Positions 2,514-36,440 of a stretch of 36,440 nt of DNA are shown piece after piece. Position 1 is the stretch's first letter; every line of letters begins with the position of its first letter. Position numbers and translations under genes: made by a program. The notes below the pieces were generated by a model that was given only the letters and a program-made list of their open reading frames with translations, did not search any database and was not told where the DNA came from. This stretch comes from Verrucomicrobiota bacterium (GTDB lineage Bacteria; Verrucomicrobiota; Verrucomicrobiia; Limisphaerales; AV2): contig QHOP01000368.1 of NCBI GenBank assembly GCA_003219345.1, positions 1-36,440 on the forward strand. The letters are read 5' to 3'.

Positions 2514-2616
2514 ATCGTTCTTGCTGATTGTGACCCGGTAAAATTCTCAAAATCAGCGATGAGCATCGTTCTTGCTGATTGTGACCCGGTAAAATTTCTC
2601 AAAATCAGCAATGAGC
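2514..2616 (+). repeat. Tandem direct duplication (51 bp + 52 bp) covering the translation start of the downstream gene
   Basis: 2514-2564 ATCGTTCTTGCTGATTGTGACCCGGTAAAATTCTCAAAATCAGCGATGAGC versus 2565-2616, which has one extra T and one G>A change. Each unit ends in ATGAGC and contains the inverted repeat GCTGATT...AATCAGC. Confidence 0.9.
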
Positions 2617-19400: not shown

Positions 19401-19876
19401 TCGTCCCATTGTTTCAACCCCATCCGGGCCCTCCCAAGCTGAAAGGATGTCGCCGTTTGTATCGGATCAATTTTCTTCGCGTTTTCCAAGGCTTTCGCTG
19501 CTTCCTCCGGGTTGGACAGACGAAGGTATGCGGACCCTTTGACAAAGTAAGCCGCCGCTGAATTGGGCTCGAGTTTTAGAACTTCATCCGCCTCTCTAAT
19601 CGCCTCCGCCGCCGCTCCGCCCAACAAGTAGCAATTGGCCAGGTTCAATCGCACATCTGCGTCGTTCGGGACAATGGCCGCAGCCTTTTTATAGATGGCC
19701 AGAGCATTGGTGGCATCGCCCAGGTCCAGATAGTTCTTTCCGGCATTCATCAGGCTGAGGAACTGAGCACTGTTCGGCGCGGCGTCGGATTGGTTTGAGG
19801 AACCGCTGCGTTTGCATCCCGCCAGGCAAAACGCCAGCAGAAACAAGCACGCTGATTGGGCAAGCATGGGGCGCAT
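16496..19876 (-). CDS. Lipoprotein with TPR repeats, FG-GAP repeats, ASPIC/UnbV domain and C-terminal SCP domain; carries two in-frame palindromic-repeat insertions
   Basis: Lipobox LAGC. TPR helices (A...Y.KA..I.P, AAAYFVKGSAY). DFDNDLRPDL, DYDNDGWLDL, DFDMDCDSD. SNASGIGCKVEI; GSCPYLYAWDG; ITEELREALYLD; DGWDKDSD. Confidence 0.85.
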   Translation of the reverse strand: MRPMLAQSACLFLLAFCLAGCKRSGSSNQSDAAPNSAQFLSLMNAGKNYLDLGDATNALAIYKKAAAIVPNDADVRLNLANCYLLGGAAAEAIREADEVLKLEPNSAAAYFVKGSAYLRLSNPEEAAKALENAKKIDPIQTATSFQLGRARMGLKQWDEAIAAFREGIGMDPNHLHSAAHYLLAQALLRAGRQDEAQQELQLHQANPGEPAASAATFERSKYTQARVPFKLEQPDKEGIRIRFIDATKEVLGDGAQHFSGPIGVIDANHTGWNSLFVVEKGPVPGAGRTFRLLWNTNGTFHPYGAPYPAIPSAHYSKMLVGDLQNDRFDDIVVLGDKGSHLFKFGTNGLAMDVSPRSRLSTLSAIDGTLMDLDFTGKLDLIAVTGNTNDVRVYRQFGPLLFTDITSTSGIPASLHDAQAVMMEDWNRDENMDVIASRKEGPTLLLEKQRGGRLVPREPTHWVAGAIFCTGDFDNDLRPDLAVVSDGKISICFNGGERKEIAFSRQAAFGKSPPHPVPLPLRGGEGARRAGEGAVQGLNARPELGVEGVRQLVAVDYDNDGWLDLWAVGEKIRVWRNLGLAGFQEQTAQLGLDKFDGGAVSEIHFADFDMDCDSDVIVALANGGLRYLRNEGGNANSQIKVQLLGNRSNASGIGCKVEIETGGLRLLRTVQRLPVEVGVGKHQKLDSFLVHWFNWPQGSAEVTFNCKEPLFALELTIQEGSCPYLYAWDGKRFRFVTDILGAAPLGLPIAEGRYIEADPKELVWIGNEQTFPARDGKYEVQITEELREALYLDEAKLVVPALAGSAFDTQPPKGGTLNSGQEVTSALKTVDGRRVSPPRLRVPQLRGLAEPHGLVLDFGPLDASKPLVLVMNGWLRFGGGMANIAASHDPSLPFPFPALEAEVAPGSWKAVDVTVGAPAGKTKTILVDLEGKLEAGTRRLRLTEAFEIHWDHIALMEKKPNARTKSTFITPSEADLHFRGFSPPQNLPPDWPLTPDYDTVGPNSYWTITPGGWCTRYGDVSELIASRDEGLALMNGGDELSLKFTASSLPPKPAGCVREFFLYADGWDKDSDFHVAAGTQVEPLPFHGMDDQLYGREQRPQFPSDALHRKYNTRWVEGKVLKQTATR
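17426..17492. repeat. REP doublet (family B) inside a CDS
   Basis: GTTTAGAGTC-CCGCCTTTAGGCGG-N19-CCGGCTAAAGCCGG-CACCACCAGC: two short hairpins arranged as an inverted pair. Translated as LVVPALAGSAFDTQPPKGGTLN. Confidence 0.7.
18278..18345. repeat. REP-like palindromic element, family A, copy 2, inside a CDS
   Basis: The reverse complement matches the intergenic copies at 10756 and 25152. Translated in frame as PPHPVPLPLRGGEGARRAGEGA. Confidence 0.9.
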
Positions 19877-20018: not shown

Positions 20019-23000
20019 TCACTGCCCGGTCACTCGCAGCCGCATGAACACGCACGGATCGTCGCTGAGCGGTGGTTTCACACGCGAAGTAACCAATGCC
20101 CTGCCATCGCCGAGTTGTTCCATCGATACCGTCTCAAGGTCTGGGGCGCCCTCCTGCCATGCGGCGAGATCAGTTGAAAAGAGAACTTCGATTTTAGCGC
20201 GTTCGGCGCCGAGGCTAACCGGGTAGGTCAGCAGGAGAGCGTCGGGTCCCCCAAGGACGTCAGGTTGCAGGGCGAAGGCCGGAGAAATGGGCGGCAGCCC
20301 GAGGTCATTGCCCAGTGCATAATCGATGATGTCGCGCTCGCCATTTCCATTCGCGTCGCCCAGTGGATCGGCGGGAAAGGGCACGACATCCGTCCAGCCG
20401 GGGCTGCCACCCGGAAAGGCGCTGGAGCGCCAGTTCGTGGCAACTGCAGGATCGGGATTGGTGTCGGGCGCGATTAAGGTAAGGCTGTAACCGGACCCAG
20501 CGGCGGCCGCCGGCCAGGGCGGCGCGTCGTCATAAGTGAATTCCAGAATGGTTTGGTTGTCGGCGTCCTCGAGTTTGATTCGTTCGCCGCCGTTGCTCAG
20601 TACGGTCCCATTTGTGAAAACACCTGCGACCGGACGGTTGGGTCCGTAAACGGCCTTAAAAGCCGCCAGGTCGCGCACAACCAGCACCCGCCCGCCCGGC
20701 GGCAACGAGGTAATGGCGCTGCCGGTAAAACTGAACTCCACGCCCTGCGTGAAGTGCACATCCGTCAGGTCCAGCGTGACCGAGCCGCTGATGTTCAACA
20801 GCTCGATGAATTCGGCCAGCCCGTCGCCTGCGGGATGATACATCAGCTCGCTGACCAGGAGATAGCGTTGGGCGTCAGAGGGCCGGCCCTGGTAAGTCGT
20901 CGTGTTGTTCGTCGCGCCGGAGGCGTCGATGAGCGTGAGCCCTTCCCCGAGACTGGAAAGATGCCCTTTGTAGCCGCCCTGCACGAAAAGCCCCTCACCG
21001 CCTTTGGGTGAAACCGTCCGGGCCCGGAACGCCGCAGTGCTCGGACAGAGGTAGAGGGCGCCGTTCGGCGGCAGGACTGTGCCGGACGTGAACGTGTGCT
21101 CGACTCCACCGGTCAGCCGCCAGTCCGAAATATCCACCGCAATCGGGTTGTGATTCAGCAGTTGAATGAATTCGGCGTCCTGATTTCCCGACGCGGGACT
21201 GGCCTCGATCGCGCCGAAGTCGATCACCGGCTGAACCTCGTTCGTCGCAGCAAGGGTGCCGCCATAGAGCTCCGGCACGATGATCATGTCGCTGCTGCTG
21301 ACGCTGTCGTTAAGGCCCTGGATCGCGAGGATGTTCCGTCCGGCACGTAGATTGGTTTTTTTGGCAGTCGCATCGTAGATGTCGAAGGCCGTCGCCTTGG
21401 CTTCATGCTGCGCAGTCGCGGCGGAGTTCCATTGGGGCGAGACCGGGGCATTGGCCGAGGCCAGCACTGCTCCATTGAGAAAGGCCACGAAGCCGTCGTC
21501 GAATTTCATTCGCAGTTCGAGCCGGTCAAAGGCGGCCGGATCGGCGACGTCGAACTCGATGCGGATATAGACGCTGTTGTTGCTCCGCATCTGGGTGTCC
21601 ACGTTCAGGCCGATGAGCGTTTCATACCCGATGTCACGTTCGTAGCCGACGCCCGTGGCGCCATTGATCCACCCGGTGGTATTGAAAGGCTCGAACGCTG
21701 GGATGCCGATCCAGGTCACGCTCAGACTGCTGTTCGGGGGCACGAACGCCTTCGCGGGCGCTCCCGCCACCACCAGCGGTGTGTACTGGTAGGTCGAACT
21801 GACCGTTTGTGGTTGTGGGATTTCGCCGCCTTTGCCGTCGATCTGGGTGTTGTAGATGTAGTTGCGCCGCGCGGGCAAATACTCGGTCTTCCAGCGCTGG
21901 ATGGCTTTGGCCATTGTTTCCACGGCCGGATCGGTATTCGTGTAGGACACGGTGGCGCCGCCTTGCAGCCAGGAACCCCATTTCTCAAAATCACGCCGGG
22001 CGTCGGACGGCACGATCCCCGGCGGATCGATGAGCGCGGACTGCTCGTTGAGCCTCCGCTCATAATACAGCTCGCTGTCCGGCGTTCCCGGCGCCGGCGG
22101 TGGCTGAAGGAAACGGTCGGTCAACGTGCGGATGCGCCGCATAATCATGGCTCGAGTGGCCGGAGCCGCGAAGAGTTCGGCGACCAATCGGATGGCATCG
22201 CCGGTGATCACGTATCCATCGGTATAGAGCCCGTTGTCGAAATAAGTGTACTGCGTGTTCCAGGTGCGGCCCTGTGAGAGGTCGAGGTCCCACGGCAAAA
22301 TAGCCCACTCCTCGCTCCGCCCGGTGTCGCGGTAGATATACCAGTTTTTGCGGTGCATATCGATGTTCCGGATAACCGAGTTGGCGGCAAGCATGTTGAT
22401 GCAGCGAGGGATGTCGATGTTGTCGTAGAGATAATTATTCAGGGCTGTGCCCGTTAAAGCGAGGCCATCGATCAGCGCCTGGAGATCGCTGTTGTTCTCG
22501 GTTTTGCGAGTCTTCTTCTCCACGCCGGAGGTGCCGGTGTCTCCAGCGCTTTTGTTCAGTGTGTTTGCGTAAACCTTGTAAAGGGCGCCGTTCCTGTTCA
22601 GGCCCGCGCGGTCCAGGTAATCCTCATTCCCGCGTTCGACGAAATCCGCCGTGCTGAAAAAAATTCCGTTTTGTTGAACGCGCACCGTGTTGGCCAAATG
22701 CGCGGCAACGCCAGATTCGCGCATCACTTCGTAGGCCAGCACATGGCGCACCTTCGATTTGTCCGCCCAATTGGTGAGCAGATCGATACCGGACTCGCGC
22801 GGGGCGTTCGTACTCCAGCGGAATCGTTGAGTGCGATTGAAATCGATGTTGTAGCTCTTCTTTGTGAAGCCGGCGGTGGACTGCCCGTGCAAACTGAACA
22901 ACACGTTGTCGTAAAACTCGCCGTCGTAATAAACCGCGCCGCGTGACCCGGCGTCGGTGCCGGCTCCACCGGGGTTGCTGGTGAACCAGTGAAACACCGG

Positions 23001-23909
23001 CAGAGCGGTTTGCACGCCGGCATCCTGCGCCACCGTGCCGAAATACTGATGGGAGTCGAGCGGATCGCGGTAGGCCGGCTCTTTCGTTTCGGTGCCTGTG
23101 GTGTCTCCGGCGACGAATCGCCAGCGCGTCATTTCCCCCGGCGCAAACGCCGCGCCTGGGATAATTGCTGTCCAGATGCCATCGCCTGCGGTCGCATCGC
23201 CGCCAGTGCCATCGTCTGTCATCGCCACCATGGTCTCGGCGGCAAACATCCGGCGGTAGTAAAGCTTCACCGTCGCCACGGGATCGTTGGCCGGACGAAC
23301 GGACGCGGTGATGGTCAACGGACCGGTCACTGGCTGCGGGGGATTTCTTTCCACCGCGCCAAAGATCGGACCAGCGCGGGTGCCGCTGGCATTGGGAGCG
23401 CCGGGAGTGGGGGTGGAGAAGAAACTCCATACCGGGGACGATTCTGGCTCGCCGAGACCAAACGATACGTTCTCGAACTGCGGCGGGTAGGAGGGCGCGA
23501 AGGCGCTGACCACCGTCACGCCGTCCGGCGCAACCAACGCCAGGTACTCGCCCTCCGCCGAGAGTTGGAAATCCGTGTGCAGCCGGCCCGCTGGATCAGC
23601 TCGATTTTTGCCCGAGGCGAATACGACGAGATAGGCGGCGGGGTTCAGCGTCACGGCGGGAAATGTCCACTTGTCAAGGTTCGCCGCGTCGTCCGTGAGA
23701 TGGTAACCCGTCAGCGAGATCGGGGTGCTGTCCGGATTGTGAATTTCAATCCAATCTGAAAACTCACCGTCCTCGTCGGCCAGCCCGGAACCATTCGAAG
23801 CCATGAATTCGGTGATGAGCGGGGCGCCGAAGCCGGTTATGGGAGGTGCCAGCGCCAGCCAAAGGAGCAGCCGGAGACAGGAGGAGGACAGTTTGATTTC
23901 AGGCACCAA
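20019..23909 (-). CDS. Secreted CotH-family kinase with lamin-tail domains
   Basis: Signal-like N-terminus. LTD motifs ITEFMASN...DEDGEFSDWIEIHN, EFIQLLN...VDISDWRL and SELMYHP...EFIELLN. CotH core HGQST...KKSYNIDF, DMHRKNWYIY, PWDLDLSQG. Tail FSTDLAAW...FMRLRV. Confidence 0.88.
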   Translation of the reverse strand: MVPEIKLSSSCLRLLLWLALAPPITGFGAPLITEFMASNGSGLADEDGEFSDWIEIHNPDSTPISLTGYHLTDDAANLDKWTFPAVTLNPAAYLVVFASGKNRADPAGRLHTDFQLSAEGEYLALVAPDGVTVVSAFAPSYPPQFENVSFGLGEPESSPVWSFFSTPTPGAPNASGTRAGPIFGAVERNPPQPVTGPLTITASVRPANDPVATVKLYYRRMFAAETMVAMTDDGTGGDATAGDGIWTAIIPGAAFAPGEMTRWRFVAGDTTGTETKEPAYRDPLDSHQYFGTVAQDAGVQTALPVFHWFTSNPGGAGTDAGSRGAVYYDGEFYDNVLFSLHGQSTAGFTKKSYNIDFNRTQRFRWSTNAPRESGIDLLTNWADKSKVRHVLAYEVMRESGVAAHLANTVRVQQNGIFFSTADFVERGNEDYLDRAGLNRNGALYKVYANTLNKSAGDTGTSGVEKKTRKTENNSDLQALIDGLALTGTALNNYLYDNIDIPRCINMLAANSVIRNIDMHRKNWYIYRDTGRSEEWAILPWDLDLSQGRTWNTQYTYFDNGLYTDGYVITGDAIRLVAELFAAPATRAMIMRRIRTLTDRFLQPPPAPGTPDSELYYERRLNEQSALIDPPGIVPSDARRDFEKWGSWLQGGATVSYTNTDPAVETMAKAIQRWKTEYLPARRNYIYNTQIDGKGGEIPQPQTVSSTYQYTPLVVAGAPAKAFVPPNSSLSVTWIGIPAFEPFNTTGWINGATGVGYERDIGYETLIGLNVDTQMRSNNSVYIRIEFDVADPAAFDRLELRMKFDDGFVAFLNGAVLASANAPVSPQWNSAATAQHEAKATAFDIYDATAKKTNLRAGRNILAIQGLNDSVSSSDMIIVPELYGGTLAATNEVQPVIDFGAIEASPASGNQDAEFIQLLNHNPIAVDISDWRLTGGVEHTFTSGTVLPPNGALYLCPSTAAFRARTVSPKGGEGLFVQGGYKGHLSSLGEGLTLIDASGATNNTTTYQGRPSDAQRYLLVSELMYHPAGDGLAEFIELLNISGSVTLDLTDVHFTQGVEFSFTGSAITSLPPGGRVLVVRDLAAFKAVYGPNRPVAGVFTNGTVLSNGGERIKLEDADNQTILEFTYDDAPPWPAAAAGSGYSLTLIAPDTNPDPAVATNWRSSAFPGGSPGWTDVVPFPADPLGDANGNGERDIIDYALGNDLGLPPISPAFALQPDVLGGPDALLLTYPVSLGAERAKIEVLFSTDLAAWQEGAPDLETVSMEQLGDGRALVTSRVKPPLSDDPCVFMRLRVTGQ

Positions 23910-25340: not shown

Positions 25341-26447
25341 CTACGGCATCCGGGACAGCGGCAAGGTGATTTTGAACGTGGTGCCTTTGTTGACTTCGCT
25401 CTCGACGCTGATCCGGCCGTGGTGCTCCTGAATGATGCGCGACGTAATCGCCAAACCCAGGCCGGTGCCTTCGGGCTTCGTGGTCACGAACGGGACGAAG
25501 AGGCGCTTGTTCACCTCCGGTGGAATCCCTGAGCCCGTGTCCTTGATGCTGACCTGAATTTGCTCAGCCTTGCCCTTCGGTTCCAAGGGCGAAAGATGGG
25601 CGGTGGCGACAACAATTTCGGTGGCCACGGTCAGCGAGCCCATTTCTTCCATCGCTTCAATGGCATTCAACAGGAGATTGATCAGGGCCTGTTCCAGTTG
25701 CTTGGCGTCGCCTTGCACAAGGTCGATGCCGGCATCGAGAGCGCGGACCAGTTGGATTTTTCTGGTCGTGATGTGGTGCTGCACCAGCCGAAGGGAGTTC
25801 TCGATCACTTCATGGATACTGACGCTGGAGAAGGTGGGCTTGGCCGGTCCGGCGAACTTCAGGAGTTGAGTGACGAGCGAATCGATCCGTTTGGTTTCGC
25901 GGCTGATGAGGCTGGTCATTTCGACGTCCTCGTTCCGTTCCGCCAGGAGGTCCGAGAACGATTTGATGGCCACGAGGGCGTTTTTGATTTCATGCGCCAC
26001 GCCCGCCGACAGCGTGCCGATGCTGGCCAGCCGTTCGAGCCGGCGGATGCGACGTTCCAGCTTCCTGGCCGAATTGAGATCGTGAAAAACCGCGACCACA
26101 ACGAGCGGCTGTCCCGAACCGTCCGCGCACAAAGAAGTGGAGGCGTGAACCGGCGCTTTTTCCTCCGCGTCAGGAAAGAGAACAAAGGTCCGGTCGGTGA
26201 CCGGTTTGCCCGAAGCAAAAGTCTCTTCGATCACCTTTTGCAACGACGCGGGCAGCCCGGTCATTCGGCGGCCGAGAATCGCCTGAGCCACCAGCCCAGT
26301 GATCCGCTCAGCCGCCCGATTGAAAGCCGTCACGGTCCTTTGCGCGTCAACCGACACGACTCCGGGTTCCATGGAACGGAAGAGAAGGCCGGAGAGGTTC
26401 AAACCCTCGTTTCTTCGCTTTATGAAAACGGTTTCTTGAATCGACAT
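25341..26447 (-). CDS. Cytoplasmic PAS-domain histidine kinase (NtrB-like), no adjacent cognate regulator on its strand
   Basis: PAS (GVVSVD...FNRAAERITG), H-box AHEIKNAL, N-box NLLLNAIEAM, DTGSGI, FVPFVTTKPEGTGLGL. No TM segment. Confidence 0.9.
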   Translation of the reverse strand: MSIQETVFIKRRNEGLNLSGLLFRSMEPGVVSVDAQRTVTAFNRAAERITGLVAQAILGRRMTGLPASLQKVIEETFASGKPVTDRTFVLFPDAEEKAPVHASTSLCADGSGQPLVVVAVFHDLNSARKLERRIRRLERLASIGTLSAGVAHEIKNALVAIKSFSDLLAERNEDVEMTSLISRETKRIDSLVTQLLKFAGPAKPTFSSVSIHEVIENSLRLVQHHITTRKIQLVRALDAGIDLVQGDAKQLEQALINLLLNAIEAMEEMGSLTVATEIVVATAHLSPLEPKGKAEQIQVSIKDTGSGIPPEVNKRLFVPFVTTKPEGTGLGLAITSRIIQEHHGRISVESEVNKGTTFKITLPLSRMP

Positions 26448-26696
26448 ACTGAAGATGCTTCGCGAACTGGGCGGGCGTTTACCTGACAGAAATGACCATT
26501 GCGGATTTCAGTACGAGCCGCAGTCCAATGCCGTTGCGCCCACAGAATGATGAAGGCGCCTGGATGGTTCACTTCTGATCGCCGGCTTCGCGTTAGCATC
26601 GACTTCATCAAGTCTAACGACGGAACGGGCGGCTGACAACGAAAAAGCCCTGGCGGGCGGTTCTCGGGCGCAAATTAGTTTTGAGAGCGGCGATAA

Positions 26697-26784
26697 GCAG
26701 CTTGCGGAGCAGCGGTCGAAAGCAAGCCCGCGGCTTCAGTCGTGGGTCGCGGTATTAACAATCGGAGCCGTGAAGCGGCGAAAG
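26697..26784. repeat. REP-like element, family C, left copy
   Basis: Hairpin GCCCGCGGCTTCAGTCGTGGG, then a 40-bp block (26745-26784) that is repeated at 29001-29040. Confidence 0.65.
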
Positions 26785-26989
26785 CAAATCCTCCCGACTT
26801 GCCCTCTGTTCACGCATCGGACCAGGCGGCAGATTGGATGAAACCGCGGAAAACTTTAATGATTGTTGAGTGTTTGGTTTCTCCTTACACTTCGCCTGAA
26901 ATGAACCGTGAAAGCCGGAGAAACTGAAATGAGATCTGAAAGCTATCGTCGATGGGAACGCTGTTGAGTTCACTGCACTTGCTAAACTG

Positions 26990-27835
26990 ATGCGAAACCT
27001 ATCGGGTAAAACGGCTATTCTGACGGGCGCTTCCGGAGGACTGGGTCGTTACATCGCTTTGGCCCTGGCTGAACAAGGAGTGAATTTATTCCTGGCTGCT
27101 TATCCTGGAGAAGGGCTGGACAGCCTCAAAGAAGCGGTTTGCCAGCACGGAGTTCGCGCGATTCCTCTAGTGGCGAATTTTCGCCACGCTTCTCAACTGC
27201 GGTCCGTGGTTGAAGAAGCTAAAAATGGATTCGGCCGAATTGACTTGTTGATCAATAACGCAGGAGTGGAATACACATCCGCCTATCACGAATTGCCCGA
27301 GGAGAATATCGGGGACATCATCGGCATCAACCTGGAAGCGCCGTTGTTGCTCACACGGCTGGTGCTGCCTGAAATGCTGGAGCGACACTGCGGGCACATC
27401 GTGAACATGGCGTCCCTGGCAGGCAAGTCCGGCCCGGCCTTTCAAGAACCGTATGCAGCCACCAAGGCGGCCCTTATTGCGTTCACCGCTTCTCTGCGCG
27501 CCACGTATCGTGGAACCGGAGTCAGCGCCTCGGTCATTTGCCCCGGCTTCGTTGAAGCGGGAATCTACGCGAAGTTAAAGAAGGAAACAGGGTTCCCGGC
27601 GCCGGCGCTCCTGGGCACTTCGCCTCCTGAACCCGTTGCCAAAGGAGTGGTTCGCGCGATCCAACGGGATTTGCCGGAGGTCATTGTTAATCCCTTTCCA
27701 GTGAAGCCGCTTTTTGCGGCCGCCATTTTATTCCCACGGCTCGGAGAATTTCTGATCAACCGAACCGGAGCGCATAAATTCTTTGCCAAGGCGGCAGAGG
27801 TACTGAAACAAAAGCGGATCGAGGCTCAAAAATGA
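26990..27835 (+). CDS. Classical short-chain dehydrogenase/reductase (SDR)
   Basis: TGASGGLG, NNAG, catalytic S (MASLAG) and YAATK, ICPGFV. Overlaps the convergent FadL-family gene by 10 bp. Confidence 0.93.
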   Translation: MRNLSGKTAILTGASGGLGRYIALALAEQGVNLFLAAYPGEGLDSLKEAVCQHGVRAIPLVANFRHASQLRSVVEEAKNGFGRIDLLINNAGVEYTSAYHELPEENIGDIIGINLEAPLLLTRLVLPEMLERHCGHIVNMASLAGKSGPAFQEPYAATKAALIAFTASLRATYRGTGVSASVICPGFVEAGIYAKLKKETGFPAPALLGTSPPEPVAKGVVRAIQRDLPEVIVNPFPVKPLFAAAILFPRLGEFLINRTGAHKFFAKAAEVLKQKRIEAQK

Positions 27836-28944
27836 TAGCCGATGGAAAAATTAACGGCCTGATTGAAAAACTGGTAGCTCCCGTCGGCCGAATTGCCGTT
27901 GTTGATTTGTCGCGCCGGTCCAGCAATGACTTGTCCGGAAAGCGCCCAATTCCAGCTTTCTCCTTTGTGTCCGAACCCTAAACTGGCCACATGCAGATCT
28001 GTGTCCGGCACGATCGGATTGAAATCTCGGTCACTCGTGGAGTTCTGGCTAAAAAAGTACCCTGCGCTTACCCAATATCCGTTTGACAGGTAGCGGGTAA
28101 CGCCGAAGTGCGCGAGGTAACTGGATTTCCAGTTGAGAGGAAACGGCACGTCGCCAAACGCTGTTCCTTTGAACGTGACCGTATCGAGTGTGTCCCAATC
28201 CGTCCAATCCACTCCGACTTCGACGTTCCAGTTTGTTGTCGGTCGAAAGGAGATGCCGCCCATGATAAATTGTGGGAAATCCAGTTCAGCTGACGTCCCG
28301 CTTTTTTGTGAGACAATCGGTTTGGCGGTAGAATTGCCCCGGTAGTTGACTGTGGTAGGGCTGAAGTAGCTGACGCCGAGGGACCACTTGGAGTGTGGTT
28401 GCCACAGCAAGCCAACCTTGGCGCCGTACGCGAAACCATTGCCGCGAAATCTGAATTCGTCACCCGGAACGATGCCGATGCCGCGCCGCAACATGGCCGT
28501 AGAAAAATTCACCGTTGGTCCCGCAGCGATCGAAAGCGTCGAGTTAACCCGCCACGCCGCAATCGGCGCATAGATTCCAAGTCCGAACGCGAGGGGGTAA
28601 TTCATTGGTGAATAGACATAATAAAACTGAGGCACCGGTTGTATTTCGAAGTCAGTGTCGGCTTCGGTGCCGCCGGTGGCCGCCTTGAAATGGGAATTTA
28701 CAGAGATGACGTGCGCTCCGAGTTGGGCATTTTGGCCTTCGAGCAGCGTAATGCCAGCCGGGTTGTAATACAGTGCAGAAGGATTGTTTGCCGTGGCGAC
28801 AAATGCGTTGCCCCGGGCCGTTGCCTCCGCGTCTTGGTTGGGAATGCGGAAACCCAGCGCGCAAAGCGGACTTGATCGAATGGAGAGTTCAATTAATGCC
28901 AGGAAGATGAAGAGCCGGCAACCGAGACCGGTGATCAGGTTCAT
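27826..28944 (-). CDS. fadL: FadL/OmpP1/TodX-family outer-membrane channel for hydrophobic compounds, apparently with an internal in-frame deletion
   Basis: ARGNAFVATANNPSALYYNPAG hatch motif, alternating beta-strands, WTDWD, VPDTD, C-terminal YHF. Signal peptide present. Confidence 0.85.
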   Translation of the reverse strand: MNLITGLGCRLFIFLALIELSIRSSPLCALGFRIPNQDAEATARGNAFVATANNPSALYYNPAGITLLEGQNAQLGAHVISVNSHFKAATGGTEADTDFEIQPVPQFYYVYSPMNYPLAFGLGIYAPIAAWRVNSTLSIAAGPTVNFSTAMLRRGIGIVPGDEFRFRGNGFAYGAKVGLLWQPHSKWSLGVSYFSPTTVNYRGNSTAKPIVSQKSGTSAELDFPQFIMGGISFRPTTNWNVEVGVDWTDWDTLDTVTFKGTAFGDVPFPLNWKSSYLAHFGVTRYLSNGYWVSAGYFFSQNSTSDRDFNPIVPDTDLHVASLGFGHKGESWNWALSGQVIAGPARQINNGNSADGSYQFFNQAVNFSIGYHF

Positions 28945-29000
28945 GGTTTCAACTTCTGGCGGAAATAATCGCTGGATGCAAAGAAAAAATGAGAGCCCAA

Positions 29001-29148
29001 GGTTGCGGTATTAGCAATCGGACCCGCGAAGCGGCGAAAGAGAATTCTCTTCGGCCGCGATTCTGTCGCCCCTGAAGGTGCCTTTGACGATGGACCATTT
29101 TTTCCCCACGGCTCACGCCGTGGGCCCCTCTGCCGCCACACTGTGGCT
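29001..29148. repeat. REP-like element, family C, right copy
   Basis: 40-bp block 29001-29040 is 36/40 identical to 26745-26784. It is followed by CTGTCGCCCCTGAAGGTGC and the hairpin CCCACGGCTCACGCCGTGGG, which is inverted relative to the 26726 hairpin. Confidence 0.65.
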
Positions 29149-29376
29149 GGTGGCTTGCGCGCCCATTGTCAAAATCCAACTTGCGCCCACCTTCAAAGTG
29201 CCCAAGCAATTATTCTATTCACACAATCGTTTTTCTGCTATTCGTCCGCTGGCATAGATTGTCAGTGCGCAATTGCGGACATTCGTTGTTGAGCATGACC
29301 CGCGGTGCTCGGGCACTCTCAGGCCTGCGTTTCTGCTCCGCCACGACGCTAAAAGTCCAAACATCCGCTTCCGACA

Positions 29377-30792
29377 ATGTCAGACTCCGAGGTAAACGAA
29401 AGCCTGGTGACAGCCGAAACGAGCCAGGGAATGGAATTTCGCGCCGGTATTCTGCGGTTGACGCGGCATCTGGTGGTCTTCGAGGTGTATAACCCGGTGT
29501 TCGTCTTGCGTCTGTCGGAGGTATTGAACAACTTCAAGATTCTGGCAGCGGGCCGCCCTGTTTATTCCGGGCGGGCGGTGGTCAACAATCTCATCAACAC
29601 GGGATTGGTGGTCGTTTGCGAGGCGACGCTGGGAGATTCCTGGTTTGATGTAGATTTTCCCGCACCCTCCGAACTGGCGCCAAAAATGCGCGAGGAGTTC
29701 GATCGGTTCATCCAGGCGACGCAGAAGGCACTCCGGATTCGACCGGAATTCAAGCTGGTCATCGCGGACCTGCAAACGCTTTTGATGGATTTGCGCGCCT
29801 GGCTGGAGCAGGTGGAACTGGGTGTGCGTTCGCAGCCGGCGGGTGACCGGTTGCAAATCGAGCGCGAAACGATTTTGGGATTGCAGGAGCCGATTGTCGG
29901 GACCGTGTTGCCGCTGTTGGAAAAGTTTGAAATGACCGCGCAGGAGGTTGAGTCTGAGGCCCGACCCGCGCATATGAATTATCTGAAGCGGCAGATTCAT
30001 CCGTTCGTCCTGTGCGCGCCATTTATTCATCGCACATTTTACAAGCCGCTCGGTTACGCGGGCGACTACGAGATGGTGAACATGATGATCCGCGACCCGT
30101 ATGAGGGCGGATCAATCTTCGCCAAGATTCTGAACCGCATCTTCCTCAGCACGCCGCCGGTTGAAGCGCATCGAGACCGGCTGGTCTATTTGATACAATT
30201 GCTAAGGGGAGAGACCCTCCGGTCGCTGCAGCGCGGACGACCGACGCGCATTTTCAATCTGGGCTGCGGTCCGGCAAAGGAGATTCAAGATTTCCTTGCC
30301 GATCACGATGTCTGCCGGGACGCGCATTTTACGCTCCTTGACTTCAATGACGAAACGTTGGCTTACACCTCCAAGGTGTTGGGTGAGATCAAGAGGCGTC
30401 ACGACCGCCCCACTCAAATCCAACTGGCGAAGAAATCGGTCAATCAACTCATCAAGGAGGCATCCAAACCACTCGGCTCGCCCGCGAAATACGATTTGGT
30501 TTATTGCGCCGGGCTGTTTGATTATCTGCCGGACCAGGTTTGCAAGCGGTTGATGAATATTTTTTATGATTTGTTGGCCCCAGGGGGATTGCTGGTCGCC
30601 ACCAACGTGGATGATTCGAATCCCTCGAAGAACTGGATGGAATATGCGTTGGACTGGCACCTGGTTTATCGCACCGGTCGGCAGTTCGCGACTCTGGCGC
30701 CGGAGGGGGCCCGGCCGGACCTGGTAACAGTCCGCGCGGTCGGCAACGGAGTGAACATATTCATCGAGGTCAGGAAGCCGGAAAATGGCTGA
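29377..30792 (+). CDS. phcB: PhcB-like class I SAM-dependent methyltransferase (putative 3-hydroxy fatty acid methyl ester signal synthase)
   Basis: N-terminal beta domain SQG...LVVFEVYNP...SEVL....I......Y.GRAVV..LINTGL recalls the Ralstonia PhcB N-terminus (from memory). Also KPLGYAGDYEMVNM, SAM motif NLGCGPA, LLDFN and YDLVYCAGLFDYL; 471 aa. First gene before a TM kinase and a REC-HK gene, as in phcBSR. Confidence 0.8.
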   Translation: MSDSEVNESLVTAETSQGMEFRAGILRLTRHLVVFEVYNPVFVLRLSEVLNNFKILAAGRPVYSGRAVVNNLINTGLVVVCEATLGDSWFDVDFPAPSELAPKMREEFDRFIQATQKALRIRPEFKLVIADLQTLLMDLRAWLEQVELGVRSQPAGDRLQIERETILGLQEPIVGTVLPLLEKFEMTAQEVESEARPAHMNYLKRQIHPFVLCAPFIHRTFYKPLGYAGDYEMVNMMIRDPYEGGSIFAKILNRIFLSTPPVEAHRDRLVYLIQLLRGETLRSLQRGRPTRIFNLGCGPAKEIQDFLADHDVCRDAHFTLLDFNDETLAYTSKVLGEIKRRHDRPTQIQLAKKSVNQLIKEASKPLGSPAKYDLVYCAGLFDYLPDQVCKRLMNIFYDLLAPGGLLVATNVDDSNPSKNWMEYALDWHLVYRTGRQFATLAPEGARPDLVTVRAVGNGVNIFIEVRKPENG

Positions 30793-33457
30793 CACGATAC
30801 AATTGACCCCTTCCGAACTTCGCGACGCATTTGCGGTTTACGAGCGGCAGGTGCGGATCAACAACTACAAGGTGGGGTGCGTGCTGGCTTTGATCTTCAT
30901 GCCGGCGGGTGGCTCGCTCGACTACTTTGTTTATCATGAACACCTGCCCGATTTTCTTAAACTGCGCCTGTTGTGTTCGGGCTTGCTGGCGTTGATCTGG
31001 TTCCTGTTTCAAACCGGGATTGGCATCCGGTTTTACCGATTCCTTGGTTTTCTGGTGGCATTTTTGCCGCTGGCATTCATCTCCTGGATGATCAAGGCGA
31101 CCGATGGGCCCAACTCGCCTTACTACGCGGGATTGAATCTGGTCATGCTCGGCGCCGCAATCCTCCTGCGCTGGACTTTGCTGGACAGCATCCTCGTTTT
31201 TGTTTTTTCACTGGGAACGTACCTGGCTGCATGCCTGTCGAGCGAAGCGCCGAGTTCCCCGGGAATTTTCTTCAACAACTTCTACTTTTTGTTCGTCACC
31301 GGCGTGTTCATCATCACCGGGAGTTGGTTTTATAACCGAATCCGCCAGCGCGAATTTGCCCTGCGCTACGAACTGGACCGGAATCGGCAGCAGCTCCAGG
31401 AAACCAATCGCAAGCTCACCGAACTTGACCAGATCAAGAGCCGGTTCTTCGCCAACATCAGCCATGAGCTGCGCACACCGCTCACGTTGCTCCTCGCGCC
31501 GCTCGAAGCCATGCTGCACCAGCACGGCCGGGTCACGGACCCGGAAACGCGCGGCCTGCTGACCACGATGCACTCGAATGGCATGCGTCTGCTGAAGTTG
31601 ATTAACGACCTGCTCGATCTGGTGCGCCTGGAGTCAGGCCACATGGAGGTCAAGCGCGAGCCGCTGGAGTTGTCCGACTTCCTCAAAGGCCTGGCCAGCG
31701 CCGCGCGACAGGTCGCCGACGACAAACGGATCAGACTCGAAACCTGGGTTGCTCCAGAGTTGGTCTCGGTTCTCGCGGATCGCGACAAACTCGAAAAGAT
31801 TCTGCTCAATTTGTTGTTCAACGCCCTGAAGTTCACGCCGGCAGGAGGGCGGGTGGATTTGCGCGCGGAGAAGCAAGGCGATGAATTCGTCCTGCTGGTG
31901 AAAGACACCGGCATGGGCATTTCGCAAAAGAATCTGCCGCATGTTTTCGACCGGTTCTGGCAGGCGGATGGCTCCGCCCGCCGGAAGTATCAAGGCGTCG
32001 GCATCGGCCTCGCGCTGGTGAAGGAACTGACGGAGGTTCAAGGCGGAAAGGTCACCGTGGAAAGCGAAGAGGGCAAAGGAACGACGTTCACGGTGCGGTT
32101 CCCCTGCGAGAAAGCCGAACCCAAACGGAAGGCGCCTGCGGAGGCCACTGAGGAAGCCGTCGAGGCGTACGAACAAGCGCCGGCCGCCGGCACCGTGACC
32201 TCGGAGGAGTGGCTCGCCAACCTGTATCGCCGCGCCGAGTTGTTCCCCGCGTTGACGCCGGTGCAGGAAGCGGTGCGCCCGGTGGAGACGACCGGTGCTC
32301 GCGACCGCCCCAGTGTTCTGGTGGCGGACGACGAGCCGGACATGCTGCGCTTTTTGAAATCACAGCTCAACCGCCATTACAACGTGATTGAAGCGGTGGA
32401 CGGCCAGCAGGCGATAGAAAAAGCCGCGCAGTTCATACCCGAGATCATTCTCCTCGACATGATGATGCCGGAAAAGGACGGCTTGCAGGCCTGCCGCGAA
32501 ATCCGGGAGCGCACCTCCACACAGAACATCCCGATCATCCTGCTGACGGCGCGGGCGGACGAGGAGACCAAGTTGGCGTCGCTTTCGGCCGGCGCCAACG
32601 ACTTTCTGTCCAAGCCTTTTTCCACGACCGAATTGCACGTGCGGGTCAAGAACCTGATCGAGTCCCATCAACTGCAACGCAAGCTCGCCAGGCAAAACCA
32701 GGTTCTCGAATCCACTATCGACCAACTCAAGGAAACCGAGGTGCAGTTGGTGCAGGCGGAGAAGCTCGCCTCACTCGGTCGGATGAGCGCCGGAATCATC
32801 CATGAGATCAACAACCCGCTCAACTTCGCCACGACCGGACTGTTCACCCTGCGCAAAAAACATAAACACATCGCCGAGGAACATCGGCCGGAGTTCGCCG
32901 AAATCCTCAAGGACATCGAGGAGGGCGTGAAACGGGTGAAGAACATCGTGTCCGATCTGCGGTCCTTCAGCCATCCCAACACAGAAATGATGCAGGAAGT
33001 CAACGTGGCCGAGGTGGTGACCACCGCGCTCCGGTTTCTGGGCAACGAGCTGAAGGATCGAGTGCAGATTCATCAGCAGATTCCCGAGGACCTGATGATC
33101 GAAGCGAACAAGAACAAGATAACCCAGGTGTTGGTGAACCTCCTGCAGAATGCATCGGACGCGATGAAGACGAAGGCGTATGCAAACGAAACCGAAACCC
33201 CGGCCATTTCAATCGAGGGCCGCGTCGAAGACGGGCGGACGGTCGTGGCGATCCGCGACAACGGACCGGGGATTGATCCGGCCAACGTGGACAAAATTTT
33301 CGATCCGTTCTTCACGACCAAAGACGTCGGCGAAGGCATGGGGCTGGGATTGAGCATCTGTTACCGGATAGTGGAGGAATGCGGCGGGCGGATCAACGTG
33401 CGGACAGAACCGGGCCGGTTCGCAGAATTTCTGTTGGTCTTTCCACGGAAAACCTAG
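30785..33457 (+). CDS. phcS: PhcS-like membrane sensor kinase with two kinase modules: ~6TM-HisKA-HATPase-REC-HisKA-HATPase
   Basis: 8-bp overlap with the methyltransferase gene (ATGGCTGA). TM sensor with LDY..Y......LRL and SPYYAGLNLV. Module 1: SHELRTPL, NALKFT, DTGMGI, GVGIGL. REC: VADDE, DMMMP, SKP. Module 2: GRMSAGIIHEINNPL, NASDAM, DNGPGI, GEGMGLGL. Confidence 0.75.
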   Translation: MADTIQLTPSELRDAFAVYERQVRINNYKVGCVLALIFMPAGGSLDYFVYHEHLPDFLKLRLLCSGLLALIWFLFQTGIGIRFYRFLGFLVAFLPLAFISWMIKATDGPNSPYYAGLNLVMLGAAILLRWTLLDSILVFVFSLGTYLAACLSSEAPSSPGIFFNNFYFLFVTGVFIITGSWFYNRIRQREFALRYELDRNRQQLQETNRKLTELDQIKSRFFANISHELRTPLTLLLAPLEAMLHQHGRVTDPETRGLLTTMHSNGMRLLKLINDLLDLVRLESGHMEVKREPLELSDFLKGLASAARQVADDKRIRLETWVAPELVSVLADRDKLEKILLNLLFNALKFTPAGGRVDLRAEKQGDEFVLLVKDTGMGISQKNLPHVFDRFWQADGSARRKYQGVGIGLALVKELTEVQGGKVTVESEEGKGTTFTVRFPCEKAEPKRKAPAEATEEAVEAYEQAPAAGTVTSEEWLANLYRRAELFPALTPVQEAVRPVETTGARDRPSVLVADDEPDMLRFLKSQLNRHYNVIEAVDGQQAIEKAAQFIPEIILLDMMMPEKDGLQACREIRERTSTQNIPIILLTARADEETKLASLSAGANDFLSKPFSTTELHVRVKNLIESHQLQRKLARQNQVLESTIDQLKETEVQLVQAEKLASLGRMSAGIIHEINNPLNFATTGLFTLRKKHKHIAEEHRPEFAEILKDIEEGVKRVKNIVSDLRSFSHPNTEMMQEVNVAEVVTTALRFLGNELKDRVQIHQQIPEDLMIEANKNKITQVLVNLLQNASDAMKTKAYANETETPAISIEGRVEDGRTVVAIRDNGPGIDPANVDKIFDPFFTTKDVGEGMGLGLSICYRIVEECGGRINVRTEPGRFAEFLLVFPRKT

Positions 33458-33517
33458 CAATATCTTCAGAGGGCCAGAGGCTCGAAACGGGCGACGCTGG
33501 TCGGAGGACTCGCGGTT

Positions 33518-34780
33518 ATGGAAAACTATTACGATTACAAGAAGTTCGCCATCCTTTACGTGGATGACGAAGAGAAGTCGCTGAAGTATTTCACGCGGGC
33601 ATTCGAGGAGCATTTTCGCATCCTGACTGCCGCCCGGGCGGATGACGGGTTCAAGCTGGTGGAGCAGCACAAGGATGAATTGGGAGTGCTGATGACCGAC
33701 CAGCGCATGCCCGGCAACAAGGGCGTCTGGCTGCTGGAGAAGACGCGGCAGATTCAGCCGCGCATCATCCGGATTCTGGCGACGGCCTATGCCGATATGG
33801 ACGCGGCCATCGCGGCCATCAACAGCGGCGCCATTTACAAATACGTCACCAAACCGTGGGACCCGCCTACGCTCGAAACCACGCTGAAACGCGCGCTGGA
33901 ATTCTTCATCGTCCAACGCGAGCGGGACCAGCTTCTCCGCGAGAAGCTCACCGTCCTTCACAACATGATGATCGCCGATCGCATGGTCAGCCTGGGACTG
34001 CTCGCCGCCGGTTTAAGTCATCACATTCGCAACTCGCTGGTCGCCGTGAAGACGTTTCTCGATCTGGCGCCGACGAAGCTCAAAGAGGAAGACGTGCAGT
34101 TGGACAGTCTTCACAATCCGGACTTCTGGAAGGATTACTATCACAACGTCCAGACCCAGATCGAGAAGATCAACAACATGCTGAAAGACCTCTGGTCCGC
34201 CTCGGAAAAACCTTCCTTCGAGTTCAAGGACGTTGTCAGTTTGCACGAAATCCTTACGGGAGTGCTGGAAAAACTCAAGGACAAGCTGGCGGCCAAGAAA
34301 ATCGGCGTCGAAGTGCAGCTCCCGGACTCGCTGCCGACGCTTACCGTGGACAAACCCAAGTTCGTCCGGTTATTCGAGCTGTTGATTGAGGACGAAATTG
34401 TAAGTCTGCCCGAGGGCAGCCAGATCAGCATCTCCGCTCAGTACACCGAACGCTCGGGGAAGGATCGGGACGTCCGCGTGGACGTTCAGGACAACGGTCC
34501 GGGCCTGCCGAAGGACGCGTTGCGGCTGATCTTCGACCCGTTCGTCGTCCGTTCCGACAGCCCCATGGAGTACGGCATCAAACTCATGGCCTGTTTCTTC
34601 ATTGTGCACCACCACGGCGGGATGATCATGGCCCAAAGCCACGAGAAGAAGGGCACGAGCTTTATTTTGCGGCTCCCGATCGATCCGAATCAGCGCGTCG
34701 TGGTTGAGGAGAACCAGATGTTCCTCGAGAAAGTTCTCCTGAACGACACCATGTGGGAGAAGCTGATGGCGTCGGACTGA
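33518..34780 (+). CDS. phcR: PhcR-like protein: receiver domain plus degenerate histidine-kinase domain
   Basis: ILYVDDEEKSLKYF, MTDQRMPG, RILATAYAD, YVTKPWD. H-box SHHIRNSL; DNGPGL and IFDPF retained, but the N-box (LLIEDEI) and G2 box (EYGIKL) are degenerate. Confidence 0.7.
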   Translation: MENYYDYKKFAILYVDDEEKSLKYFTRAFEEHFRILTAARADDGFKLVEQHKDELGVLMTDQRMPGNKGVWLLEKTRQIQPRIIRILATAYADMDAAIAAINSGAIYKYVTKPWDPPTLETTLKRALEFFIVQRERDQLLREKLTVLHNMMIADRMVSLGLLAAGLSHHIRNSLVAVKTFLDLAPTKLKEEDVQLDSLHNPDFWKDYYHNVQTQIEKINNMLKDLWSASEKPSFEFKDVVSLHEILTGVLEKLKDKLAAKKIGVEVQLPDSLPTLTVDKPKFVRLFELLIEDEIVSLPEGSQISISAQYTERSGKDRDVRVDVQDNGPGLPKDALRLIFDPFVVRSDSPMEYGIKLMACFFIVHHHGGMIMAQSHEKKGTSFILRLPIDPNQRVVVEENQMFLEKVLLNDTMWEKLMASD

Positions 34781-34908
34781 TCGGGGCGGGAAGACGCGGC
34801 GCGATCACGATTTCGATTGCATACTGTGAACGAATGGGCACCAGTAAGAGCGAACCGCGAGAGTGTATGGATTCACGTTCGAGCAGCAACCGCGGGCGCG
34901 GCGCATTG

Positions 34909-36440
34909 ATGAAGACGATTCTGGTAGTGGCTCAACACCCGGAACTGGGTGAGGCAGTCAGTGCCGCTTTGAACGCGGAGCAGTATCGAATCATCAACCG
35001 CCTCAGCGTTGAGGAGGCCGACCCCCTGCTGCACCACAGCTTGCTGGATGCCTGCATCATCGACGCCGATCTGACGAACGTGCAGGCCGTCTGGATGATC
35101 GAAAAAATCCGCCGCCGCCTGCCCCATTGCCCCCTGGTCGTTTATACCAGCGCCAAACCGTGGGCGTGGGAGGAGGAAGCCTATCTTCACGGCGTCAAAC
35201 ATGTGTTGACCAAGCCGGTTCGGGCCCGGATGTTCAACGCGCTGTTGGAGGGTTTATGGACAGCTTCCCGTCCGGTGACGCCTCCGAATAACACAGGCAA
35301 TACGAGTATGCGCTTTCGGGTTCCGCGCCCCCCGGAGCAAGCGCCGGCTTCTGAAAGCAGCCAGACCACCTTTGAGACCTTGCACGTGCTGAGGGATTTT
35401 TCCGCTGTCCTGACTCATTCACTTAATGCCGAGGGGTTGCTCAAGCAGTTCCTGCTCCTGCTGCGCAAAATCATCGGCGTAAACCGTTCGGTCGTGTTTA
35501 TGCGCCAGCCCGCGCCGAGTTTCGGTGAGAGCCCTCCCGGACAAGAGGACGAGCGGCGGCTTCGCTCCGTTTGCGCCATGGGCCTCTCTCCAAGCCTGTT
35601 GGAGCATTTCGAATTGAGCTTTGAAGCCGGCATAGGCGGACACCTCTTCCGCCAAGGGCGCATCCTGCGGCGGGACTGCGAGGAAGTGCAGAGCAACCTG
35701 GAAATTCAAAAGGAATTTGAATTGCTGGGCGTCCAGGTGGCCATTCCCATCCTCGACCGCGAGACCCTGATGGGAGTCGCGGCGTTTGATGGACGCGTCA
35801 CTGGCGATCCGCTCTCCAACACCGAACTGGAGCTGGTCTTCCACCTGCTCGAAGCGCTGGGACTGGCGATTCGGAACATCTGGCTCCATGACCAGTTGGC
35901 GGCCAACCACGGGATGATGGTCAACATCCTGCATGAACTGAGCAGCGGCTGCGTTGTCGTCAGCCGCGAGCTGGCGATTCTCCACGCCAACAAGACCGCG
36001 CGCAGGTACTTCGCGCGGTCCGGGCGACGTGGCACCGAACTTGAGTTCAGCGACCTGCCCCAGGTTCTCGGCGGCAAAGTTTATCAGGTTCTCAAGACAG
36101 GCACGGCGGTCGCCCCCTTCAAATATTCGCCGCCGGATTCCCCCAGTACAGTTTACCAGGTTTCGGTCATCCCTTTCCAAAGCCAGAACTCGGTGGTTCC
36201 CAACTCGGCGCTCCTGGTCGTGGAGGACCATTCGCAGTCCGAACAACTGCACGGGCTGGAGATGGAAGCCGCCAATCTGCGCCTGGTCAAACATATGGCG
36301 GACCGGCTGGCCCACGAGATCGGCAACGCCCTCGTGCCGATTTCGACTCACCAGCAACTGCTGGCCAAGAAATACGACGACGCCGAATTCCGCGCGTCGC
36401 TCGACACCGCGCTGGCCGACGGCGTCCGGCGCGTCACGCG
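34909..36440 (+). CDS. REC-GAF-PAS histidine kinase, 3' end outside the window (absent from the ORF track)
   Basis: Read manually. MKTILVVAQHPE...ACIIDAD...VLTKP is an atypical receiver; DFSAVLTHSL...VAIPILDRETLMGVAAF...LAIRN is GAF; SGCVVVSRELAILHANKTA is PAS; DRLAHEIGNALVP is the H-box. No stop seen before the edge. In-frame upstream ATGs at 34834 and 34867. Confidence 0.85.
   Translation, partial: MKTILVVAQHPELGEAVSAALNAEQYRIINRLSVEEADPLLHHSLLDACIIDADLTNVQAVWMIEKIRRRLPHCPLVVYTSAKPWAWEEEAYLHGVKHVLTKPVRARMFNALLEGLWTASRPVTPPNNTGNTSMRFRVPRPPEQAPASESSQTTFETLHVLRDFSAVLTHSLNAEGLLKQFLLLLRKIIGVNRSVVFMRQPAPSFGESPPGQEDERRLRSVCAMGLSPSLLEHFELSFEAGIGGHLFRQGRILRRDCEEVQSNLEIQKEFELLGVQVAIPILDRETLMGVAAFDGRVTGDPLSNTELELVFHLLEALGLAIRNIWLHDQLAANHGMMVNILHELSSGCVVVSRELAILHANKTARRYFARSGRRGTELEFSDLPQVLGGKVYQVLKTGTAVAPFKYSPPDSPSTVYQVSVIPFQSQNSVVPNSALLVVEDHSQSEQLHGLEMEAANLRLVKHMADRLAHEIGNALVPISTHQQLLAKKYDDAEFRASLDTALADGVRRVT

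Follow-up and report, generated by a model that had tools for sequence, protein, structure and literature searches.

A Probable Phc-Type Signalling Locus in Verrucomicrobiota: A PhcB-Family Methyltransferase Encoded Next to a PhcS-Like Double Kinase

Introduction

Could a verrucomicrobium make and sense a fatty-acid methyl ester as Ralstonia does with its Phc system? The question is raised by a locus at the 3′ end of a 36,440-nt stretch of DNA from a Verrucomicrobiota bacterium (contig QHOP01000368.1, assembly GCA_003219345.1), the whole of which is called the window here. At this locus, a methyltransferase gene is followed by genes for a membrane sensor kinase, a receiver-kinase and a further receiver protein, which a first, sequence-only reading had taken as a phcBSR-like quorum-sensing locus. 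To our knowledge, little cell-to-cell signalling has been described in Verrucomicrobiota, and no paper describing a Phc-type system in this phylum was found in the literature. In the papers cited here, PMC10653808 among them, Phc signalling is treated as a speciality of Ralstonia and Cupriavidus, and the phc cluster is reported as restricted to Betaproteobacteria in a survey that covered Proteobacteria only (PMC10653808).

The answer reached is a qualified yes. With moderate confidence, the locus is a Phc-type synthase–receptor signal module; homology and synteny support this reading, through the enzyme, the sensor homology, the layout of the third protein and the conserved gene order. As judged from the sequences, the enzyme, the sensor domain, a kinase core and the receiver have homologues at a Burkholderiales locus, and the order and coupling of the genes are conserved. 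The locus suggests that fatty-acid-ester signalling may extend far beyond the plant pathogens in which it was first discovered.

Gene Layout and Host

Four co-directional open reading frames (ORFs) lie on the + strand in the ORF listing of the window: ORF1 (29377-30792), ORF2 (30785-33457), ORF3 (33518-34780) and ORF4 (34753-36438). The methyltransferase frame of ORF1 and the kinase frame of ORF2 overlap by 8 bp (30785-30792, junction ATGGCTGA), with a ribosome-binding-like AGGAAG run 8-13 nt 5′ of the ORF2 start, and a gap of 60 bp (33458-33517) separates ORF2 from ORF3. The listing agrees with what the sequence-only reading had given for the number, direction and lengths of the genes, the overlap and the gap. 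By Pfam, ORF1 carries a class I methyltransferase domain only (residues 287-430); ORF2 has one receiver between two HisKA/HATPase cores, all C-terminal to a hydrophobic N-terminus; ORF3 consists of a receiver, HisKA and HATPase; and ORF4 of a receiver and GAF, its 3′ side being open at the window end.

A collection holding one genome per species was scanned with the window's enzyme as query; at least 600 stretches matched and at least 596 were confirmed. The synteny survey used the best 80 of these at least 596 loci, whose enzymes are 47-59% identical to that of the window. Records titled Verrucomicrobiota account for 65 of the 80 nearest loci, and near-identical proteins bear the names of proteins from Verrucomicrobia metagenome-assembled genomes, in line with the earlier assignment of the DNA to a probable verrucomicrobium.

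The Methyltransferase

ORF1 starts at ATG and encodes a 471-aa PhcB-family S-adenosylmethionine (SAM)-dependent methyltransferase (29377..30792, + strand), the presumed signal synthase, as judged from homology, alignment and an AlphaFold model. It is 38% identical to Cupriavidus necator P0388 over 456 of its 471 aa (E 1e-106). In a plasmid collection searched by tblastn, one full-length match was obtained, to a Paraburkholderia graminis plasmid gene (37.9% identity, 97% of the query), in addition to 114 partial ones to the methyltransferase domain. Full-length homology to Burkholderiales PhcB-type proteins, which the sequence-only reading calls for, was found in a comparison with proteins of Cupriavidus and Paraburkholderia.

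The Paraburkholderia plasmid enzyme is ~68% identical to Cupriavidus proteins, and its relatives among the 120 matches listed come from Cupriavidus, Massilia, Janthinobacterium and others, with none from Ralstonia among these 120. Some clusters of the Cupriavidus relatives have the JGI name 3-hydroxypalmitic acid methyl ester biosynthesis protein, and the NCBI name of one Cupriavidus cluster is 'regulatory protein, putative SAM-dependent methyltransferase'. A word-indexed search with ORF1 returned 5413 relatives, and the same JGI name was counted by hand on 35 of the 120 ORF1 relatives listed. When 50%-identity representatives were searched exhaustively, 4755 matches were obtained at E <= 0.001 and 664 at E <= 1e-30, the best of them mostly full-length.

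An alignment of 49 sequences spanning both groups of the family, Burkholderiales included, has 19 invariant and 32 nearly invariant columns. G298, P299, E302, D322, Y376, D382, Y383 and the KPLGYAGD block K223-D230 are invariant, so that ORF1 has both the SAM-binding features (the glycine loop and Asp322) and the motif specific to the family. The AlphaFold model (predicted local distance difference test, pLDDT, 91.2) comprises a beta-barrel (~10-85), a helical domain (97-285) that carries the invariant motif as KPLGYAGDYE, and a Rossmann domain (290-466).

When the N-terminal barrel was modelled alone (pLDDT 86.2), its best PDB fold matches were PilZ proteins (MrkH, BcsA, PP4397, YcgR), all of them weak (E 0.013-0.14, none <= 0.001). 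Language-model look-alikes of ORF1 include clusters from other phyla with Pfam PilZ in 49-84% of their members. In ORF1 itself, Pfam found no PilZ and nothing credible in the first 288 residues. A PDB sequence search with the ORF1 family profile gave 6 weak matches (best E 0.00042). The canonical PilZ motifs RxxxR and DxSxxG are not obvious in the translation of 29377-29670 (ORF1 residues 1-98).

The Sensor Kinase

ORF2 (30785..33457, + strand) starts at ATG and encodes an 890-aa protein with the layout transmembrane (TM) domain, kinase, receiver, kinase. Its membrane sensor domain, MASE8-type and PhcS-like (30785..31369), shows six hydrophobic segments in the hydropathy profile, between residues 30 and 181 and without a sizeable external loop. 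The first kinase core (HisKA/HATPase, 31436..32110), placed by Pfam and the position of the H-box, has the H-box HELRTP with His227. It is followed by the internal receiver (32315..32647; Pfam Response_reg E 4.1e-28), in whose translation Asp515/516, the phospho-acceptor Asp558 and Lys610 are found, and by the second kinase core (32720..33451; H-box HEINNP with His673), which matches a PhcS-like kinase; all these parts are on the + strand. The multi-TM sensor kinase of the sequence-only reading is, more precisely, a double kinase with a receiver.

A profile of 77 membrane domains (the window's and those of 76 loci) matched the kinase of the Paraburkholderia locus at E 3e-35 over positions 6-193 of 194, with no other match within that locus, which upholds the claim that the window's kinase is PhcS-like. 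By BLAST, the second core of ORF2 is 33% identical to the Paraburkholderia kinase over 285 aa (E 3e-51), and a second alignment runs from residue 21 through the membrane domain; tblastn gave 34% over 251 aa for the second core. The H-box type HE[IV]NNP is common to both proteins, and the first kinase core as a separate query gave no match to the Paraburkholderia kinase at E <= 1e-5. Short relatives of the membrane domain carry a precomputed Pfam assignment to PF20968 MASE8, and the JGI name 'sensor histidine kinase PhcS' was counted by hand on 17 of the 120 listed, five other JGI names being generic. In the local Pfam search, MASE8 was below cut-off for both ORF2 (E 0.0034) and the Paraburkholderia kinase (E 0.0044).

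A homologous multi-spanning sensor is encoded directly 3′ of the methyltransferase, as for PhcS. A simple sensor with one kinase, of ~445 aa, is not what ORF2 encodes, having 890 aa with an extra core and a receiver. From these alignments, ORF2 looks like a PhcS-type kinase with a kinase–receiver module inserted between the sensor and the original core. In five module-free loci (L052, L053, L055, L071 and L072), the kinase resembles plain PhcS. Since they do not group together on the enzyme tree but are spread over the 19-row clade that holds the window's enzyme, the module has been gained or lost repeatedly; six changes are counted with the outgroup included, and the starred branches force at least four. 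The AT skew is +0.19 in the 2-kb bin 32001-34000, which holds the receiver and second core of ORF2, and from -0.07 to +0.06 in the other bins.

The Receiver-Kinase and the Downstream Chain

ORF3 (33518..34780, + strand; ATG start) encodes a 420-aa receiver and kinase protein with only Response_reg, HisKA and HATPase in Pfam and without a DNA-binding domain. Its receiver and linker are 40% identical to a 344-aa regulator of the Paraburkholderia locus over 209 aa (E 3e-45). PhcR is described as a receiver plus kinase without a DNA-binding domain (PMC8578825, PMC6989110, PMC10653808), and ORF3, compared with PhcR by that description, has the same layout, as the sequence-only reading had expected of it. 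All 69 ORF3 orthologues have Asp61 and Lys112. Position 168 is His in 48 of them and Gln in 14; in the N-box, 42 have Asp and 11 have Asn, and the G2 box is reduced.

The ORF4 frame is open from a GTG at 34753, and the start is most likely the ATG at 34909, because the receiver is then placed as in the orthologues. From there, ORF4 (34909..36438, + strand) encodes a receiver-GAF-PAS-like-kinase, the fourth member of the chain, which is cut by the window end; the assignment comes from Pfam (Response_reg, GAF) and from complete orthologues, which have 674-683 aa and end in HATPase. In the translation of the ORF4 receiver (34909-35230), Ala-Gln occupies the position of the two acidic residues that usually bind the metal; the phospho-acceptor Asp and the Lys seem to be there. 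By these residues, it is possibly a pseudo-receiver.

An orthologue of ORF4 follows the receiver-kinase in 12 of 61 loci. For the others, 31 first downstream + strand ORFs were scanned, picked by hand from ~62 loci with the ORF4-type ones left out: 12 encode a second receiver-kinase, 7 a receiver with or without an uncharacterised tail, and 12 are unrelated or unassigned.

Conservation of the Gene Order

Synteny counts are given over the loci with enough flank for each feature. The membrane kinase lies directly 3′ of the methyltransferase in 77 of 77 loci (in one, with a 1.5-kb gap), the receiver-kinase comes next in 65 of 65, and the PhcS-like core is present in 67 of 67; the inserted kinase core and receiver are found in 62 of 67 and absent in 5. 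Overlapping or near-abutting reading frames are the rule across the related loci. The arrangement of ORF1, ORF2 and ORF3 is not a matter of chance, and the synteny expected from the sequence-only reading was present throughout for both kinases.

At the Paraburkholderia graminis locus, the enzyme gene is accompanied by genes for a kinase (445 aa), a receiver (134 aa) and a further receiver protein (344 aa), so the methyltransferase–kinase pairing also occurs at the one Burkholderiales locus examined. Since the pairing of synthase and receptor is kept both in the survey loci and in this one, it is present on both sides of the family tree.

Upstream of the enzyme, a 372-aa FadL/TodX-family outer-membrane channel gene (27826..28944, - strand; Pfam Toluene_X E 1.2e-29, 103.5 bits against a cut-off of 29.7) is divergent from the methyltransferase. 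Its product probably lets a hydrophobic molecule pass the outer membrane, as judged from the family match. Where at least 2 kb of sequence upstream was available (64 loci), a FadL-like gene on one strand or the other ends no more than 1.5 kb upstream of the enzyme gene in 38 of them; over all 45 loci with such a match, 22 are on the + strand and 23 on the − strand. The annotated stretch of the Burkholderiales locus (L001) holds no FadL-type gene, the PLSDB gene table for it being incomplete.

Proposed Mechanism

By analogy with PhcB of Ralstonia and Cupriavidus, the cytoplasmic methyltransferase would use SAM to esterify a fatty-acid-like carboxylate, yielding a hydrophobic, possibly volatile methyl ester, the acyl chain of which is not predictable at 38% identity. 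The ester would exit through the membranes, and the FadL-type channel may help it across the outer one. It would then be sensed inside the membrane by the MASE8-type domain of the 890-aa kinase, a six-segment homologue of the domain in the Paraburkholderia kinase, and cells would gauge their density from the ester. A FadL-type neighbour and a membrane domain without a large external loop fit a lipophilic ligand.

Within ORF2, phosphate would pass from His227 to Asp558 and control the second, PhcS-like core (His673), as in receiver-controlled kinases such as LvrB. It would next reach Asp61 of the 420-aa receiver-kinase and then further receiver-kinases. The output would involve no DNA binding within the cluster and would have to lie elsewhere in the genome. 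The structural model for kinases that are turned on when their own receiver is phosphorylated is LvrB, in which this phosphorylation frees the catalytic domains, and since its output is an anti-sigma factor, receiver-kinase chains need no DNA-binding partner in the operon (PMC13269768).

Points Against and Alternative Explanations

Several points weigh against a Phc-type module. In a FastTree phylogeny of 109 full-length family rows, all 11 rows from Burkholderiales fall into a single clade (100*) within a 43-row half, and the window's enzyme, grouping with named Verrucomicrobiota proteins, lies in the 66-row half, with a 96* branch between. Under the sequence-only reading, the enzyme should group with the PhcB clade; it falls outside the characterised Burkholderiales clade, which is a miss for that claim in its strictest form, although the full-length family is the same. 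By tree and alignment, ORF1 is a member of the full-length PhcB family outside the characterised clade. This tree was midpoint-rooted and has several long-branch joins elsewhere, and the other tree, likewise made with FastTree, was rooted on a single-row outgroup.

In addition, the 38% identity is that to the nearest functionally anchored group, and the synteny counts hold for the enzyme's own clade only. The ATP-binding or kinase domain of ORF3 is atypical in its residues, and the protein may be a phosphatase, scaffold or pseudokinase in some lineages. No LysR or other DNA-binding domain was found in the 16 window ORFs or in 43 downstream ORFs of related loci, the regulator scan covering window ORFs and related clusters; the earlier statement that neither phcA nor another DNA-binding regulator lies in or beside the locus stood. 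The models of the N-terminal barrel of ORF1, PilZ-like in fold, hint at intracellular control. The product, its volatility, release and density dependence, and any cross-talk with Ralstonia are what we infer.

One alternative is that the lipid methyl ester, or a similar hydrophobic metabolite, stays with its producer and that the kinase chain monitors through it the cell's own envelope or fatty-acid state and not the population. A membrane-embedded sensor without an external loop would suit such private feedback, as would a PilZ-like barrel, which suggests internal control of the enzyme, and a long internal kinase chain without a dedicated transcription factor; the FadL-type channel could equally take up exogenous fatty compounds. 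However, the only characterised relatives release their product, which acts between cells (PMC7694676, PMC8578825), and a conserved pairing of synthase and receptor, found in both halves of the tree, is typical of autoinducer pairs. Private feedback is considered unlikely.

A second explanation is that the enzyme makes no signal but methylates a protein, such as the kinase next to it or a receiver protein, in the way that CheR methylates chemoreceptors, and so tunes signalling. Weak CheR matches were obtained (NCBIfam E 0.007; PDB 5ftw E 0.0088), one NCBI record names a Paraburkholderia relative 'CheR-type MCP methyltransferase', and the translational coupling to the kinase is tight. Nevertheless, all CheR scores are far under the curated cut-offs. 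The best PDB fold matches of ORF1 are small-molecule methyltransferases (3ocj, SgvM, Rv2258c, SibL and others), with no CheR structure among those listed, through rank 49. PhcB itself is described as a methyl-ester signal synthase (PMC7694676, PMC10653808), and a CheR-like role appears very improbable here.

It is hardly credible that enzyme and kinases are mere neighbours, the one serving ordinary lipid or secondary metabolism and the others sensing something else, for although function is nowhere demonstrated in the phylum and a short-chain dehydrogenase/reductase (SDR) gene lies nearby, the adjacency in 77 of 77 loci, mostly with overlapping or near-abutting frames, is matched by the same pairing in Paraburkholderia, and the SDR gene is not conserved (4 of 57 loci).

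Distribution and Significance

The system is common in Verrucomicrobiota, not rare. The automatic names in IMG are already PhcB and PhcS, and the resemblance is latent in the databases. The pair marks at least 596 genome stretches in the one-genome-per-species collection and reaches Verrucomicrobiota and Planctomycetota; other branches of the family tree include Planctomycetota proteins, and look-alike clusters occur in Myxococcota, Bdellovibrionota and Nitrospirota.

It is possible, if still doubtful, that the methyltransferase with a PilZ-like barrel and the MASE8 kinase are an old and widespread signalling device, of which the Phc system of Ralstonia is a late offshoot. The system of Verrucomicrobiota would then be a true cell-to-cell system with its own chemistry, its ester differing from methyl 3-hydroxymyristate and methyl 3-hydroxypalmitate, the two esters known so far, a dedicated FadL-type gate in the outer membrane, a multi-tier receiver-kinase cascade and a non-LysR output, and it would be the first defined autoinducer pathway for the phylum.

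With a conserved and recognisable module in many Verrucomicrobiota, the cell-cell talk of these abundant soil and freshwater bacteria would become testable at the bench. Candidate genes for synthase, receptor and channel are in hand, and Prosthecobacter, Roseimicrobium and strain DG1235 are culturable carriers. In addition, its natural variants, some with the inserted module and some lacking it, make the locus useful for work on the wiring of receiver-controlled kinase cascades.

Comparison with Known Systems

The gene order described for the known system is phcB-phcS-phcR-phcQ (PMC7694676, PMC8578825), where PhcQ is a receiver-only protein whose receiver is similar to that of PhcR (PMC8578825, PMC6989110, PMC10653808). 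The window has the same order of methyltransferase, MASE8-type membrane kinase with the same kind of core, receiver-kinase without a DNA-binding domain, and further receiver protein (PMC8578825, PMC10653808). The phospho-accepting histidine of PhcS is reported as His230 (PMC11960443), and that of the PhcS-like Paraburkholderia kinase is at about residue 233.

The two systems differ in several respects. The window's enzyme is only 38% identical to Cupriavidus necator P0388 and belongs to a different clade of the family, and its kinase has a kinase–receiver module between the sensor and the PhcS-like core (62 of 67 loci). The fourth gene encodes a receiver-GAF-PAS-kinase instead of the receiver-only PhcQ, and a fifth receiver-kinase lies 3′ of the ORF4-type gene in three of the six close relatives checked. 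A FadL-type gene adjoins the window locus, and neither PhcA, the LysR regulator that carries the output of the known system, nor an LqsR-type PhcX neighbour was seen there. The host is verrucomicrobial, whereas the phc cluster is placed in Betaproteobacteria by the survey, confined to Proteobacteria, of PMC10653808.

The kinase–receiver–kinase protein followed by a receiver-kinase protein resembles the Lvr pair of Leptospira (the hybrid kinase LvrA and the receiver-controlled kinase LvrB), at near the full model lengths. In both cases the best NCBIfam match is an Lvr model: residues 193-887 of ORF2 align to 177-817 of the 819-position LvrA model (E 4.8e-101), and residues 13-388 of ORF3 to 7-376 of the 377-position LvrB model (E 5.7e-20). 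The scores are far under the cut-offs, with 339.1 bits for LvrA where 1200 are required and 71.8 for LvrB where 500 are, and the proteins are not orthologues. Membership of the LvrA, LvrB, AtoS, LuxQ and other equivalog families was rejected, all scores being far under the cut-offs.

Functionally alike are the CqsA/CqsS system of Vibrio and the diffusible signal factor (DSF) system RpfF/RpfC, in which a fatty-acid-derived lipophilic signal is sensed by a multi-spanning membrane kinase. The synthases of the alpha-hydroxyketone and DSF systems are a pyridoxal phosphate-dependent acyltransferase or a crotonase, in contrast to the SAM methyltransferase here, and the likeness is functional only. 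The same holds for LqsA/LqsS/LqsR of Legionella, which resembles the locus only by function, with a cytoplasmic enzyme, a lipophilic signal and a multi-spanning membrane kinase (PMC10653808).

Upstream Region and the Rest of the Window

The 432 bp that separate the divergent FadL-like and methyltransferase genes (28945..29376, no strand assigned) are presumed to hold the promoters. Counts of promoter-like and terminator-like sequences across 26400-36440 were at the shuffle level, the repeats in 28945..29376 were short pairs only, and the Rfam and tRNA scans of the whole window gave no match. The SDR gene at 26990-27835 was considered as a part of the module and rejected, since an SDR gene is found in the neighbourhood of only 4 of 57 loci.

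Two further sensor kinases are encoded at 1-2367 and 25341-26447 (- strand). One, whose 5′ side is open, is a CHASE2-PAS-kinase-receiver hybrid. The second, a soluble PAS-kinase, is encoded immediately upstream of the SDR gene and has AtoS as its best NCBIfam match (E 1.6e-91, under the cut-off). A 1129-aa ORF at 7256-10645 has no credible family match. The window also encodes four very large, probably surface-exposed or secreted proteins (2611-6978, 10932-14216, 16496-19876 and 20019-23909), which carry, in this order, Ig-like/SBBP repeats, FG-GAP/ASPIC repeats with a redoxin-like end, TPR and FG-GAP repeats, and lamin-tail and CotH kinase-like domains. Between two of these large FG-GAP/ASPIC repeat protein genes lies a gene for a 375-aa DDE_3 transposase with helix-turn-helix (HTH) domains (15314-16441, - strand).

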